DNA of 14,944 bases from an uncultured Methanosarcinales archaeon (lineage in GTDB: Archaea; Nanobdellota; Nanobdellia; Woesearchaeales; CAZJJJ01), in contig CAZOXV010000003.1 in NCBI GenBank assembly GCA_964583935.1, positions 5,463 through 20,406 of the forward strand, given 5' to 3'. The first letter of the stretch is position 1; the number at the start of each line of letters is the position of its first letter. Shown here piece after piece: positions 2,204 through 12,293 of the stretch. The position numbers and the translations under genes were made by a program. The notes under the pieces were generated by a model. It saw nothing but the letters and a program-made list of their open reading frames with translations, ran no database searches and was not told the origin of the DNA.

Positions 2204-2450
2204 AGAGAAGAAGCTTGAGTTCTTTGATATGATGAAAGAACTTGCTGAACTACAAAGTAAAACTCCAGATGAGACATTGGCTAATCAGCTTGAGAGAATA
2301 ATAAATGGATTGCTGAGAGAAACAATGTCCTTAGAAAGTGCCATAAGGTTTGTGGAAAATAGAATAAAATCTGCTAAGAGGGCTGAGAGCATCGCTTTTT
2401 GGGCTACAATAACGAAAGTCATCAAAAAGTATTTTGAATTGATATCTTGA
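2193..2450 (+). CDS. Hypothetical helical protein
   Basis: ORF from the track. Its stop TGA (2448-2450) is embedded in the -35 TTGACA of the next promoter. Confidence 0.4.
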   Translation: MRNKEKKLEFFDMMKELAELQSKTPDETLANQLERIINGLLRETMSLESAIRFVENRIKSAKRAESIAFWATITKVIKKYFELIS

Positions 2451-2476
2451 CACACATCCGGTAATATGTTATATTA
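2447..2476 (+). promoter_or_regulatory. Sigma70-like promoter: TTGACA (2447-2452), 17 bp spacer, TATATT (2470-2475, TGtTATATTATAAT context)
   Basis: Direct read. This is one member of a six-copy promoter family in the window. AAGGAG and the pncA ATG lie ~30 nt downstream. Confidence 0.55.
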
Positions 2477-2505
2477 TAATTGAACAATCAAAAAAGGAGT
2501 TGTTT

Positions 2506-3045
2506 ATGAAGGTCTTTGTTGACGTTGATACTCTCGGTGACTTTTTCGAGGGTGGAGCACTGCCTGTCCCTGATGCCGACGAAATACGTCCTACTCTTGA
2601 GAAGATAACAAAATTCGCTAAGAGCCAAAAAATTCCAGTTCTCAAATTCAACGACTCACATGACGGGACTGAGCCAGAAATGAAAGCCAACGGTGGACCT
2701 TTTCCACGGCACTGTATGATTGATACAGAGGGTGCCGCAAGTATTCGTGAGACTTCGTGTAAGAATGCTCTTATCTTTGAGAAGCAGACTTACGATGCGT
2801 TTGATACAAAACTTGGAAACAAAAAGATTGATGGTTGGTTGAAAGAAAACAAAGTTACAGAAGCTTGGGTTTATGGAGTAGCTACTGATTGGTGTATCAA
2901 GGCTGCTGTTTTAGGTCTTCTCAAAAGAGGAATAAGAGTTTATGTTTTCAAAAATGCTATAAAGGGCATTGATGAAAAAGCATCCAAGCAAGCTATCGAT
3001 GAAATGAAGAAGGCCGGAGCATTGATGGCTGTTGCTAAACTCTGA
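2506..3045 (+). CDS. pncA: Nicotinamidase (isochorismatase-family Cys hydrolase, PncA)
   Basis: VDVDTLGDFFEGGALPVP matches E. coli PncA VDLQNDFCAGGALAVP (catalytic Asp). A conserved Lys lies in FEKQTYDAF. GVATDWCI matches GLATDYCV (catalytic Cys). ATG 2506 follows AAGGAG with a 7-nt spacer. The track start at 2500 is a TTG. Confidence 0.8.
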   Translation: MKVFVDVDTLGDFFEGGALPVPDADEIRPTLEKITKFAKSQKIPVLKFNDSHDGTEPEMKANGGPFPRHCMIDTEGAASIRETSCKNALIFEKQTYDAFDTKLGNKKIDGWLKENKVTEAWVYGVATDWCIKAAVLGLLKRGIRVYVFKNAIKGIDEKASKQAIDEMKKAGALMAVAKL

Positions 3046-3055
3046 TGGATAAAAT

Positions 3056-3265
3056 ATGAAAGTGAAATTTTATACTTATTGTGGTGAAGCAGGAGACCTT
3101 CAAGGAATGATAGTTGCTGAGATACGAGGGGGTATAAAGTTTCGAAGACTATTTACTCGTACTGGATGGTTTGCTTTGTGGAGTCTTAGAAGAGCCAAGA
3201 AAAAGTTGATGAACCAAATTGAATTGACGACAGGGCAGATGCCTGTTGAAGTTGAAAATTTTTGA
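3056..3265 (+). CDS. Hypothetical small basic protein
   Basis: ORF from the track. The RBS is weak. It fills the gap between pncA and nadE. Confidence 0.35.
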   Translation: MKVKFYTYCGEAGDLQGMIVAEIRGGIKFRRLFTRTGWFALWSLRRAKKKLMNQIELTTGQMPVEVENF

Positions 3266-3279
3266 AAGGAAGTTTACAA

Positions 3280-9817: not shown

Positions 9818-10051
9818 ATGGATATGCTTTTCAACAAAGCGGAAGTAATCGGAACAGTCATTCAGGTCAGCTTTCACACAAATCTGGTCTGTAAGTACCG
9901 TTGTTGGTACTTTCCTAAAAAGCTCTGTAAGATTCCAGAGGTTGGTGATTGCGTCGAGACAAACGAAAGAACTCTCAGAGTGTGTGATATCATACACAAA
10001 CAGCTTGAAGATGGTACACCATATCTTAGTGTTGAGTTGGTTTCCCGATGA
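9818..10051 (+). CDS. Hypothetical Cys-containing small protein
   Basis: ORF from the track with a promoter and RBS immediately upstream. Its stop overlaps the next start (ATGA). Confidence 0.5.
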   Translation: MDMLFNKAEVIGTVIQVSFHTNLVCKYRCWYFPKKLCKIPEVGDCVETNERTLRVCDIIHKQLEDGTPYLSVELVSR

Positions 10052-10419
10052 AATACGGAATCGATATCCACGGAGTGGCAGATACCAAGAAGTTGTTCTT
10101 CGCACGATTTAGCGAAAGAGCAATCGCAAACGGGCACGAAGTTCATATTATTACCGGAAACATGAGAACTCCAGAGATTGAAAAAGAGCTTAGTGGATAT
10201 GGAATTGAGTTCACCCACTTCTTCAGTGTATCGGATACTCTTTTGGCTGATGGAAAAGAAACTCACTGGACTTCGCCAAACGATCATTGGTTCAAAGCTG
10301 AAGAATGGAACAAGGCCAAAGCAGATTACTGTAAGGAAAATAAAATCGATTTACATTTTGATGACTCGAATGATTATGGAAAATATTTTGAAACACCATA
10401 CGTGAAGGTTGTAATATGA
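10048..10419 (+). CDS. HAD-like hydrolase-fold protein with a variant motif I (DIHGV instead of DxDGx)
   Basis: Motif I-like GIDIHGV, motif II-like HIITGN, and motif IV-like DLHFDDSNDY. Overall it resembles a small capless HAD phosphatase or 5'(3')-nucleotidase. Confidence 0.45.
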   Translation: MKYGIDIHGVADTKKLFFARFSERAIANGHEVHIITGNMRTPEIEKELSGYGIEFTHFFSVSDTLLADGKETHWTSPNDHWFKAEEWNKAKADYCKENKIDLHFDDSNDYGKYFETPYVKVVI

Positions 10420-10697
10420 AACCAGTATCAGAAAAATTCGTTCTTTACGATAACGCATTTGAGATGGCTGTTGTCGAAGAAGAGAATGACGAAGGAATTG
10501 TAGGCTGGTGCGAGCTTTTCAGACAAGACAAGTTCATCGTTGAGACTATAAGGGATATGATTAGCAACATTGATAACCATCACGGTAAAAGAATAGCCCG
10601 GATGTTCACATATTTTAAGAAGCAATCTTTGGTTCATCTTGGAGAATGTGTTCTTGCCGGAAGATTCAAGTACGAGTACAGAGACACAGAACTTTAG
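10416..10697 (+). CDS. Hypothetical protein
   Basis: ORF from the track. ATGA overlap with the upstream gene. Confidence 0.45.
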   Translation: MKPVSEKFVLYDNAFEMAVVEEENDEGIVGWCELFRQDKFIVETIRDMISNIDNHHGKRIARMFTYFKKQSLVHLGECVLAGRFKYEYRDTEL

Positions 10698-10710
10698 ATT
10701 GGAGTAAAAA

Positions 10711-11064
10711 ATGCTTACAGATGATTACGACTTCAGGAAAAAGATCGCCAATGAATGTGTTGTTGGTGGCAAGCTCGACTTAGAGATGTACGAGAAAAGA
10801 CTAAAGATGATTGAGTCAAAAAATAAAGCTATCGCCGATTTCGTGAGGGAGATGAGGAATAGAAACCTTGACGATATCGAAGTTGATATGCTTGTAAGGG
10901 AACTTATTACTCAACACAGAACTCACCAGCAAAACATTATGAGAAATCTTTACAATGCTCTGAAGAAGTATTCCGAGACTTCTGGGACTGACGACAGGAA
11001 TAAGAGTTCTGTCGAATGGGCTAAAAAGGCTACCAAAGAAGAGCATCACTTTCCTTTTATATAA
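10711..11064 (+). CDS. Hypothetical helical protein
   Basis: ATG follows GGAG with a 6-nt spacer. Confidence 0.5.
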   Translation: MLTDDYDFRKKIANECVVGGKLDLEMYEKRLKMIESKNKAIADFVREMRNRNLDDIEVDMLVRELITQHRTHQQNIMRNLYNALKKYSETSGTDDRNKSSVEWAKKATKEEHHFPFI

Positions 11065-11075
11065 GGAGTATCCAT

Positions 11076-12293
11076 ATGTTTTTAGAAGATGATAAGTTTA
11101 TGAAGCGTCTAAATGGAGACTACATTATAAAGAGCCTTCTCTCGACCGATCTTTACAAGCTTACTATGCTTCAGGTATTCTTTAGAGAGTTCCCTGACGC
11201 AACGGCAAAGTACAGATTCAAGTGTAGAAACGAAGGAGTTAACCTTCTTGAGTTCAAAGAAGAGATATGTGAAGAAATTGAATTTCTCTGCGATCTACAC
11301 TTTACTGATGAAGAGCTTGAATATCTCAGTAATATTCGATTCTTTACTCCTTCCTTCATCAACTATCTGGAAGATTTTAGGCTAAAGCTCAGATACATAG
11401 ATGTCAAAGAGAAGGACGGTAATCTCGATATTGTTATGGAGGGTCCTCTCACAGGAGTAAGCCCTTTTGAAATCTATGTTCTGAAGATTGTCCACGAAGT
11501 ATATAGTCGCAATGTCAATCCAATGACACCTGAACTGGAGCAAGAGGGAAAGAACAGACTGATAAGAAAGATCAACAACTTCAAAGCATTCATAACATCA
11601 GAGGGCTTCAAACCAGTAATAGTTGACTTTGGTGGAAGAAGGGCATACTCGACAGAATGGCACGAGTATATTGTAAGGAACCTTGCTAAGCACGGTGTCA
11701 TTGTTGGAACAAGTGATGTTGACCTTGCTCGAAGAATTGGTATCAAACCAATAGGGACATTCGCGCATGAGTTTATTCAGAGTTTCCAAGGTCTTAATAT
11801 TTGTCCTGTTATGGAAAGTCAGGTAGAAGCTTTTCAATGCTGGGCTGATGTTTATAGGGGTGACCTTGGAATAGCATTGAGTGATACTCTTGGTGATGCT
11901 AAGTTCCTCATTGACTTTGACCCATATTTTGCCAAGCTCTTTGATGGTGTTAGGCACGACAGTGGTGATCCGTTTGTGTGGGGTGATATGATGATTAGCC
12001 ACTATAAGGCATTTGTCATTGAGCCAACAACAAAAACTCTTGTGTTTAGTGATGGACTTGACTTTGACAAGATGTTTAGCTTGGCTCTTCACTTTCAAGG
12101 AAAGATCAAGACTTCGTTTGGGATAGGGACAAATCTCACAAATGACTTAGGAATACCAGCACTTCAAAATGTAATCAAACAGGTTGAGTGTAACGGAAAT
12201 CCAACAGCAAAGCTTAGTAACAATCCAGCGAAGACTATGTGTGAGGATGAACAATATTTGAGTTATCTTAGAAGTAGACTAAACAATCTTTAA
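11076..12293 (+). CDS. pncB: Nicotinate phosphoribosyltransferase (PncB)
   Basis: It is colinear with E. coli PncB. LLSTDLYKLTM matches LLDTDAYKLHM. VGTSDVDLARRIGIKPIGTFAHEF matches [31 protein letters not shown] matches LGIALTD. GVRHDSGDP matches GLRHDSGDP. KTLVFSD and SFGIGT are identical. VECNGNPTAKLSNNPAKT matches VECNGKPVAKLSDSPGKT. ATG 11076 follows AAGGAG with a 7-nt spacer. Confidence 0.85.
   Translation: MFLEDDKFMKRLNGDYIIKSLLSTDLYKLTMLQVFFREFPDATAKYRFKCRNEGVNLLEFKEEICEEIEFLCDLHFTDEELEYLSNIRFFTPSFINYLEDFRLKLRYIDVKEKDGNLDIVMEGPLTGVSPFEIYVLKIVHEVYSRNVNPMTPELEQEGKNRLIRKINNFKAFITSEGFKPVIVDFGGRRAYSTEWHEYIVRNLAKHGVIVGTSDVDLARRIGIKPIGTFAHEFIQSFQGLNICPVMESQVEAFQCWADVYRGDLGIALSDTLGDAKFLIDFDPYFAKLFDGVRHDSGDPFVWGDMMISHYKAFVIEPTTKTLVFSDGLDFDKMFSLALHFQGKIKTSFGIGTNLTNDLGIPALQNVIKQVECNGNPTAKLSNNPAKTMCEDEQYLSYLRSRLNNL

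Follow-up and report, generated by a model that had tools for sequence, protein, structure and literature searches.

Depletion of NAD+ is among the commonest abortive-infection strategies, and three phage pathways for NAD+ reconstitution have been proven so far, all of them running through amidated or ADP-ribose pyrophosphate (ADPR-PP) branches. NARP1 comprises Adps and Namat; NARP2 comprises Nampt and a bifunctional Nmnat-Nudix protein (e.g., NadV/NatV of KVP40), and its counter-defence role was shown experimentally (bioRxiv 10.1101/2024.02.11.579819); NARP3, published in 2026, comprises PnuC and NadR (PMC13464706). PncA, PncB and NadE are not mentioned in the NARP1/2 and NARP3 papers, and the NARP3 paper refers to nicotinic acid only in passing. 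A bioinformatic study of gut jumbo phages (Microbiome 2024; PMC11662467) reported 174 “NAD-jumbo phages” (genomes of >200 kb that encode NAD+ synthesis in full) whose salvage or Preiss-Handler pathways were complete, described a pncB-nadD-nadE cluster in Kuafu_71 and mentioned phage pncA. In bacteria, the four-step salvage of nicotinamide by PncA, PncB, NadD and NadE has been reviewed (PMC9316036). Here, we analysed a stretch of 14,944 nucleotides (14.9 kb; hereafter the window) from contig CAZOXV010000003.1 (positions 5,463 to 20,406; assembly GCA_964583935.1) that encodes these four enzymes together. An earlier note on this DNA had proposed that they form a third, undescribed type of phage NAD+ reconstitution module.

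That claim of novelty did not survive comparison with deposited phages and the literature: Bacillus phage G and Sinorhizobium phage Phosso are annotated with all four steps, related clusters are described in PMC11662467, and the third place is already taken by NARP3. The window set is a further member, in a new uncultured lineage, of a kind of NAD+ synthesis cluster that has been reported from phages before. In phage G, genes for a NUDIX protein (gp273), an isochorismatase hydrolase (gp275), a nicotinate phosphoribosyltransferase (NAPRTase; gp277), a nicotinate mononucleotide (NaMN) adenylyltransferase (gp281) and an NAD synthetase (gp283) lie within 8 kb. Phosso genes 368-377 include a PncA-like hydrolase (368), a nicotinamide mononucleotide (NMN) adenylyltransferase, a MutT/NUDIX protein (370), PncB and an ammonia-dependent NadE, the four steps being assigned to genes 368, 369, 375 and 377. 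Agrobacterium phage Atu_ph07 carries three steps plus NUDIX (gp236, gp237, the ADP-ribose [ADPR] pyrophosphatase gp238 and the PncB gp242); NadE was not located in this phage. Phages G and Phosso thus resemble the window in holding a PncA-like protein, PncB, an adenylyltransferase, NadE and NUDIX within ∼8 kb, Atu_ph07 holds the same set except NadE, and the catalytic and metal-binding residues of PncA are identical in all three. Because their proteins share only 24-34% identity with those of the window, the three sets appear to be independent assemblies. Unlike the window, none has a vault or NADAR gene in its cluster, and the adenylyltransferases of Phosso and Atu_ph07 are of a NadM-like subtype, unlike the NadD of the window. 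Atu_ph07 gp236 (L042 4356-4964) is annotated as “hypothetical protein”, yet it carries all six nicotinamidase residues and adjoins the adenylyltransferase and ADPR pyrophosphatase genes, which points to an annotation gap.

IMG/VR was surveyed with a PncB alignment as the query (a single-protein PncB query returned nothing). A PncB relative was encoded by 439 viral stretches, and gene content was read in the best 80 PncB loci: all four genes lay within 10 kb in 22 of these 80, and PncA was present in 52. Neighbouring genes in these loci encoded phage DNA polymerase, primase-helicase, topoisomerase II, RtcB and RNA ligase. The deamidated four-step set is therefore widespread in large phages, occurring in IMG/VR loci, in the cultured phages G and Phosso and, for the most part, in Atu_ph07. 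A tblastn search of 22 concatenated window proteins against phages was uninformative, its matches being swamped by the ubiquitous NADAR domain. In the 735-kb phage LR756501.1, which PMC11662467 describes as carrying nadD only, tblastn placed a PncB (430311-431435; 5e-60) beside a NadE-like sequence (428818-429429; 1e-13) and also detected a NadD, at 31136-31720 (1e-16), so that this phage may carry a full Preiss-Handler route.

The described clusters of NAD-jumbo phages share with the window the clustering of phage PncB, NadD and NadE on very large genomes, and an NAD+ synthesis of the phage's own has been proposed for them. They differ in that PMC11662467 covers a three-gene cluster and leaves aside its linkage to NUDIX, vault, NADAR and cyclic-phosphate-processing receiver (cREC) genes as well as loss variants; moreover, the window belongs to a different uncultured lineage, and a megablast search with its full sequence gave no nucleotide match among 50,697 deposited phage records. 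NARP2 likewise starts from free nicotinamide and has the same predicted outcome, but it takes two amidated steps via NMN, whereas the window would take four via nicotinate, NaMN and nicotinate adenine dinucleotide (NaAD), without Nampt. In both, an adenylyltransferase is coupled to a Nudix ADPR pyrophosphatase, by fusion in NARP2 and as two separate genes with an overlapping stop and start in the window. The counter-defence role of NARP2 is experimental, whereas for the window set such a role is a proposal. NARP1 and NARP3 also restore phage NAD+ under NADase immunity, and NARP1 also reuses ADPR; the window lacks a PRPS-like Adps, Namat, PnuC and NadR, and would recycle ADPR only indirectly, via ribose-5-phosphate and host Prs. 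The bacterial four-step salvage uses the same four enzyme families and the same chemistry, the window set differing from it in being virus-borne, in its division among promoter units of a phage and in having genes for ADPR processing and anti-restriction as neighbours.

The four salvage enzymes and their viral setting

The window has a G+C content of ∼38% and 27 open reading frames (ORFs) that were treated as genes, all on the + strand and tightly packed; it contains no tRNA genes. Twenty ORFs were scanned against Pfam and the 10 largest against NCBIfam, the remaining ORFs being <150 aa. Starts were cross-checked with an independent gene caller on Logan contigs 99.8-99.9% identical to the window, and these calls agreed with starts at 2506, 3280, 4466 and 11076. 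The earlier note had assigned PncA to 2506-3045, NadE to 3280-4134, NadD to 4466-5083 and PncB to 11076-12293 (all + strand, as are all window features described below). All four genes were intact at exactly these coordinates, and Pfam, NCBIfam, PDB matches and catalytic motifs confirmed their families.

PncA, the predicted nicotinamidase (nicotinamide to nicotinate and NH3), matched Pfam Isochorismatase (4.3e-26), and its best four PDB matches were all nicotinamidases, with Pyrococcus horikoshii PncA at the top (1ILW; 4.5e-27). Alignment to the latter showed that the catalytic residues D10/K95/C132 and the metal ligands D52/H54/H71 are all kept. These six residues were invariant across six phage homologues, among them those of two relatives, phage G gp275, Phosso gene 368 and Atu_ph07 gp236. 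NadE, which would convert NaAD, NH3 and ATP to NAD+, matched Pfam NAD_synthase (4.4e-45) and exceeded the TIGR00552 cutoff (139.5 against 63.65 bits); its SGGIDS loop is present, and SGGxDS was invariant in eight phage homologues. At 284-290 aa it consists of the synthetase domain only, without a glutaminase domain, and because of this single domain it is read as ammonia-dependent. For NadD, the predicted nicotinate-mononucleotide adenylyltransferase, assigned through TIGR00482, PDB matches and motifs, all 15 of the significant PDB matches were NaMN adenylyltransferases, and the (H/T)xxH and SxxxxR motifs were found as GGSFNPPTTSH and SSTYLR (SSTxxR). PncB, an ATP-coupled NAPRTase with both Pfam domains (N-terminal and catalytic), scored 472 bits with NF003704, for which the cutoff is 379, and 407 bits with TIGR01514, for which it is 269; it aligned with Pseudomonas aeruginosa PncB2 (1YIR) at 310 bits, its phospho-histidine motif GTFAHE matching GTMAHE. 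As its match to the PHROG “nicotinamide phosphoribosyltransferase (PRTase)” reached only 35 bits, PncB, the sole type II PRTase in the window, is on its family matches unambiguously a bona fide NAPRTase and neither Nampt nor Namat.

Two scores leave some room for the view that at least one of these enzymes has another substrate (a different amidase, or an adenylyltransferase for NMN or another nucleotide), in which case no complete route would exist. PncA scored 73.6 bits (cutoff 174) and NadD 102.8 bits (cutoff 112.45) under the respective NCBIfam equivalog cutoffs, and Phosso and Atu_ph07 use the different, NadM-like adenylyltransferase subtype. The nicotinamidase-specific metal site and catalytic triad are nevertheless invariant, so that PncA reads as a diverged nicotinamidase; the top PDB matches of each protein are all the proposed enzyme, and the co-occurrence and co-loss of the four genes (see below) would be hard to explain unless they served one pathway. 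We consider such a substrate switch improbable. The order of reactions from nicotinamide to NAD+ put forward in the earlier note (PncA, PncB, NadD, NadE) is the straightforward reading of the four confirmed products, and the window very probably encodes a working route. Neither Nampt, Adps nor Namat was found among the window ORFs scanned, in line with that note, and the NARP3 enzymes PnuC and NadR were likewise absent from them.

The note had also taken the DNA to be that of a phage, and this held. Scanning metagenomes with the ArdC-like protein encoded near the end of the window identified two IMG/VR viral genomes, one a contig of 149,281 bp that is syntenic with the window and 91-97% identical to it in nucleotides, the other a related contig of 123,835 bp; further relatives were found on contigs of 253,372 bp and ∼264,000 bp, the latter also an IMG/VR entry. 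The window holds a complete NAD+ pathway, one element of the published definition of a NAD-jumbo phage, and the size of its syntenic relatives (253,372 and ∼264,000 bp, with the sibling contig at 149 kb and the contig of the window itself at 20.4 kb) bears on the other. Genes in the flanks matched PHROGs for homing and HNH endonucleases, PhoH, RtcB, Thg1-like protein, CCA-adding enzyme, exonucleases, anti-restriction proteins and NAD+ ligase, and Pfam families for R2K ATP-grasp, RlaP and MoxR/VWA pairs. The best-scoring sequences of the phage collection for the vault gene and NadE came from LR756500 and LR756501, both huge phages. The window is thus best read as part of a region of auxiliary genes in an uncultured tailed phage that is large and probably jumbo.

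If the region were instead bacterial (a chromosome or the host flank of a prophage), its genes would be ordinary host copies of pncA, pncB, nadD and nadE. Adjacency of pncA and pncB is common in bacteria, one relative (L052) was deposited within a “Petrotogales bacterium” metagenome-assembled genome (MAG), and the flanks that could be reached yielded no capsid, terminase or tail gene. Such an origin is nonetheless very improbable given the one-strand, tightly packed genes with many small ORFs, the IMG/VR uncultivated viral genomes (UViGs) of 124-264 kb that are its closest and related contigs, the huge-phage matches of the vault gene and NadE, and the homing endonuclease, PhoH, anti-restriction and R2K ATP-grasp genes of the flanks. 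The context of L052 is equally phage-like, and a scan of 185,579 species (one genome each) returned no close relative, the best match being a Treponema MAG at 39%.

Gene order, loss and proposed role of the module

The order PncA-NadE-NadD-NUDIX…PncB recurs in at least five diverged relatives with PncB identities of 60-73% (L044/45, L046/47, L051 and L052), and this recurrence, which the earlier note had left to be checked in related phages, shows that the clustering is not due to chance. In the 253-kb relative (L044/45) the order is LigA…DUF6557…PncA-NadE-orf-NadD-NUDIX-MVP-NADAR…PncB-cREC (LigA being an NAD+-dependent DNA ligase and MVP a Major Vault Protein homologue). In the ∼264-kb relative (L046/47), PncA-NadE-NadD-NUDIX-MVP are packed end to end, and the NUDIX stop overlaps the MVP start. 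Two shorter contigs (L051, 42 kb; L052, 25.9 kb) carry PncA-NadE-NadD-(cREC)-NUDIX…PncB without MVP or NADAR, and the visible part of a 43-kb contig (L014) has PncA, NadD, NUDIX, NADAR and PncB with a lectin-like gene in place of NadE. From these gene orders, the conserved core consists of five genes (PncA, NadE, NadD, NUDIX and PncB), with the vault and NADAR genes as lineage-specific additions. Unexpectedly for this auxiliary region, carbohydrate-active genes were also seen in the relatives, namely a concanavalin-A-like lectin in place of NadE and a GH5 cellulase-family gene inside the cluster (L014 2732-3700 and 6890-8245; L051 15473-16801).

The closest relative, the 149,281-bp sibling (L040; IMGVR_UViG_3300005976_000005), is collinear with the window (sibling locus 6137-8759 against window 2961-12262) except for four separate gaps. 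The first spans window 2961-4019 (the 3′ end of PncA, a 69-aa ORF and most of NadE), of which 160 bp are left; the second spans 4550-4902 (the interior of NadD; 27 bp left); the third spans 5696-8732 (the vault cassette from promoter to terminator; 78 bp left); and the fourth spans 9818-12262 (four small ORFs and PncB; 56 bp left). The 3′ end of NadE and both ends of NadD persist as remnants, so the gaps are losses, while NUDIX, NADAR and a still-intact PncA are kept. The sibling is a natural knockout of the pathway, with loss continuing after the pathway broke. Several independent deletions in one pathway within one lineage suggest a co-selected, dispensable accessory module, and the pattern fits that expected of accessory conflict genes.

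A fifth core product extends the proposed chemistry. The NUDIX gene (5083-5670) encodes a hydrolase of the ADPR/ADP-sugar pyrophosphatase type (ADPR to AMP and ribose-5-phosphate), with its start overlapping the NadD stop codon. It matched Pfam NUDIX (1.9e-13), its Nudix box is perfect on reading of the sequence, and its best PDB matches were human NUDT5 (3e-12; residues 6-147, nearly full length) followed by the Thermus and Escherichia coli ADPRases. NUDIX lies downstream of NadD in every clade relative examined, directly or after one to two genes, and in Phosso and Atu_ph07 it likewise adjoins the adenylyltransferase gene.

Taken together, these genes point to a route in which PncA would convert nicotinamide to nicotinate and ammonia, PncB would join nicotinate to phosphoribosyl pyrophosphate (PRPP) with ATP to give NaMN, NadD would convert NaMN and ATP to NaAD, and NadE would complete NAD+ from NaAD, NH3 and ATP, possibly reusing the ammonia released by PncA. 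The NUDT5-like NUDIX would split ADPR into AMP and ribose-5-phosphate, from which host PRPP synthetase could supply PRPP to PncB. The two entry enzymes, PncA and NUDIX, would thereby match both products of NAD+ glycohydrolysis, nicotinamide and ADPR. Where NAD+ had been cleaved by defence NADases of the TIR, SIR2 or a similar type, or by NAD+-consuming enzymes of the phage itself, such a module would restore it and so keep it available to, for example, the NAD+-dependent DNA ligase whose gene lies a short way upstream. Recycling of ammonia and ribose-5-phosphate, as well as substrate specificities and flux, are presumed here from gene content, as is NAD+-depleting immunity as the main selective pressure. 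A link to immunity is suggested by the dispensability of the module between strains, by its linkage to cREC, NADAR and anti-restriction genes, and by analogy to NARP2, making a counter-defence role plausible. Further support for the explanation as a whole comes from the unrelated jumbo phages G and Phosso, in which the four enzymes and a NUDIX likewise arose or were retained together. We put the probability of a complete deamidating salvage route on this phage that also rebuilds NAD+ against NADase defence at roughly 55%.

The principal rival is a general metabolic booster that tops up NAD+ for DNA ligase, RNA repair enzymes and possible ADP-ribosyltransferases, and that may in addition make good a weak salvage capacity of the host, irrespective of its immunity. 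The NAD+-dependent ligase LigA (647 aa; L005 651-2594) lies ∼2.5 kb upstream of window position 1 in the same phage, and all longer relatives keep it on that side of the module (split by an inserted ORF in the 253-kb relative); it is a predicted phage NAD+ consumer linked to an NAD+ producer. RNA-repair genes (RlaP, RtcB, Thg1-like and CCA-adding enzyme) are found nearby, clusters on other viral contigs lie within replication modules, and a supply-and-complementation role has been proposed for NAD-jumbo phages (PMC11662467). However, because LigA releases NMN rather than nicotinamide, a pure supply function leaves PncA and the ADPR pyrophosphatase unexplained, and the entry enzymes match products of NADases or ADP-ribosyltransferases. 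Dispensability between near-identical strains is typical of conflict genes, and the flanking cREC, NADAR and anti-restriction genes also speak against supply as the whole explanation. We regard the booster as a distinctly less probable account, although supply and counter-defence are compatible rather than exclusive roles. LigA gave no taxonomic placement, since its tblastn identity to cultured phages was ≤32%.

Several observations weigh against the counter-defence route. Since NadD and NadE are present in almost every bacterium, it is not obvious what a phage gains from copies of its own. Four steps are ATP-expensive, depend on host PRPP synthetase and may be too slow against a fast NADase, and the recurrent association with an NAD+-dependent ligase would suit simple NAD+ supply just as well. 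The NadD score lies slightly under its equivalog cutoff, and its preference for NaMN over NMN is presumed from family membership. The absence of other pathways applies to the window, and Nampt, NadR/PnuC or a NARP1 set may sit elsewhere in the genome; in Atu_ph07, NadR and PnuC do occur elsewhere, besides PncB. Finally, structural genes (capsid, terminase or tail) were not seen in the flanking sequence that was reached. The literature yielded no published test of a phage route through PncA, PncB, NadD and NadE against any defence system. Counter-defence is directly testable, given a naturally occurring loss variant and carriers in culture (G, Phosso and Atu_ph07). If the proposed role is correct, this would be a fourth route of phage NAD+ reconstitution, built from ordinary host-type enzymes, with consequences for the efficacy of NADase defences against jumbo phages and for how anti-defence finders score “metabolic” genes.

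A vault protein homologue in the NAD+ module

Beyond the four genes of the earlier note, the module and its surroundings encode the ADPR pyrophosphatase, a vault protein homologue, NADAR, cREC/DUF6557 and the NAD+-dependent ligase. The vault-like gene (5757-8672; 971 aa) is the most unusual feature. Mechanical ORF calling started it at TTG 5733, and the ATG at 5757 was chosen from a 971-aa homologue with 99% identity (P0001). Pfam matches were to MVP_shoulder (4.9e-27) and Vault_3 (2.5e-10). In an AlphaFold2 (AF2) model, beta repeats were seen together with a confidently modelled shoulder and an unbroken cap helix of 130 residues, the mean predicted local distance difference test (pLDDT) score of 62.8 being moderate overall; in a Foldseek search of the PDB with this model, the top 12 matches were all vault structures (E 6e-28 to 1e-22). 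Pfam and the model together identify the protein as a predicted member of the MVP family, with beta repeats, an SPFH shoulder and a long cap helix. The gene forms a promoter-gene-terminator cassette (5705-8729) between the ADPR pyrophosphatase and NADAR genes. The 253- and 264-kb relatives have it in the corresponding place between NUDIX and NADAR; the sibling phage lacks it.

The shoulder of human MVP is a binding site for NAD+ and ADP-ribose (PMC12280208), and the vault also houses an NADase (TEP1) and a PARP. PDB entry 9mxj was among the fold matches of the window protein, which keeps equivalents of R504, K506 and R511 (the basic keyhole loop) in LSLSTGRPKSDKNR and lacks the human pocket residues H509, D521, W545, P565 and K573. 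Across 32 prokaryotic and phage homologues, only the Pro-Lys pair was invariant. Phage homologues of MVP have been noted once before, in two human-gut phages and with no function proposed (bioRxiv 10.1101/2023.11.10.566534). We found >4,700 MVP homologues, mostly bacterial and on very large contigs.

A link between MVP and NAD genes was specific to the clade of the window, in the long form of ≥900 aa. A general linkage of vault and NAD genes was rejected, as a 590-kb contig, a 27-kb contig and a Nannocystis chromosome carried no NAD gene within 8 kb of the vault gene; the contig of a 57% homologue was too short to be informative. The vault gene of LR756500 had a Macro-domain gene two genes downstream and no other NAD-type neighbour, and that of LR756501 had as its sole nearby window homologue a NadD ∼12 kb away on the other strand.

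Conserved position, the overlap of NUDIX stop and MVP start in one relative, and co-loss in the sibling suggest that MVP is functionally tied to the NAD+/ADPR module. Its own promoter and terminator, on the other hand, equally suit an independent moron. A real functional role of MVP in the module, as a working part rather than a passenger, is speculative and on present indications unlikely. Under this proposal, MVP could form a vault-like cage, or at least an SPFH-shoulder assembly, that binds NAD+ or ADP-ribose. It might shelter rebuilt NAD+ from host NADases, or might sequester either immune signals of the ADPR type or ADPR destined for NUDIX and NADAR next to it. An MVP gene placed between an ADPR pyrophosphatase and NADAR is a new and tractable clue to the role of vault-like cages, and if the proposal were true it would provide a prokaryotic-virus system for genetic testing of vault function, of the NAD+/ADPR pocket and of the resident NADase and PARP.

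Neighbouring genes and transcription units

The NADAR domain protein (8736-9230, with the start taken from the Logan gene call) belongs to the ADP-ribose-processing/N-glycosidase superfamily; it matched Pfam NADAR at 7.6e-51, and its best PDB match was the NADAR protein 8BAU (9.4e-17). It was also the sole match in a PADLOC scan of the window for concealed defence genes, to a candidate cluster. Upstream of PncA, a cREC_REC protein (418-720; Pfam PF20274, 4.3e-29) is paired with a DUF6557 protein (689-1309; PF20194, 5.7e-28), the two genes overlapping. In relatives, cREC lies beside PncB (L044) or between NadD and NUDIX (L051), and DUF6557 is kept upstream of PncA in three of them (L014, L040 and L044). 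The cRec domain has been reported only alongside NAD+/ADPR-processing genes (Iyer et al. 2021; PMC7824862), and the literature predicts that it processes cyclic ADPR-type or 2′,3′-cyclic phosphate nucleotides. Between NadE and NadD, a conserved Glu/Lys-rich ORF of 105 aa (4138-4455) holds the same position in L040 (96% identity), L044 (53%) and L014 (47%), and adjoins NadD in L052 (48%). Family-library scans gave no convincing match for it, and it may be an unrecognised component of the NAD+ module. A 69-aa ORF between PncA and NadE (3056-3265) was called as a gene on Logan contig L005, and four small ORFs (77, 123, 93 and 117 aa; 9818-11064) precede PncB, one of them matching phrog_13623.

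The earlier note had placed the four salvage genes in at least three promoter-defined units rather than one operon, and promoter prediction agreed with this. Seven sites in the window (2447, 5705, 9255, 9768, 13024, 13451 and 14562), each on the + strand, agreed with the sigma-70 consensus in ≥11 of 12 positions. Six are intergenic, and the one at 13024 falls at the beginning of an ORF whose predicted start is 13011. Simulation under a first-order Markov model gave an expectation of 0.35 such sites and a maximum of four in 300 runs. Most were of the form TTGACA-N17-TATATT, and four of the seven shared a GAAAACT(A/C) element just upstream of the −35 box. The promoter at 2447-2475 (TTGACA-17-TATATT with TG; 11/12) precedes PncA-orf69-NadE-orf105-NadD-NUDIX, that at 5705-5733 (TTGACG-17-TATAAT with TG) precedes the vault gene, and that at 9768-9796 precedes the four small ORFs and PncB. 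A hairpin resembling an intrinsic terminator (8694-8729; 11-bp stem with six GC pairs and a T run) lies directly 3′ of the vault gene. These near-consensus sigma-70 promoters argue for a host with canonical sigma-70 recognition, hence probably not Bacteroidota.

Downstream of PncB, positions 12315-12947 encode a coiled-coil protein of 210 aa, kept in the sibling phage, with an N-terminus that resembles the signal peptide of a lipoprotein, lipobox included (…LISMVGCGG); a role at the membrane or in superinfection exclusion is conceivable for it. The ArdC-like anti-restriction protein (13509-14345; phrog_7245), with the zincin-like motif HELAH, is very widely kept, being found at 27 metagenome loci with 34-96% identity, including marine TARA and GOS contigs.

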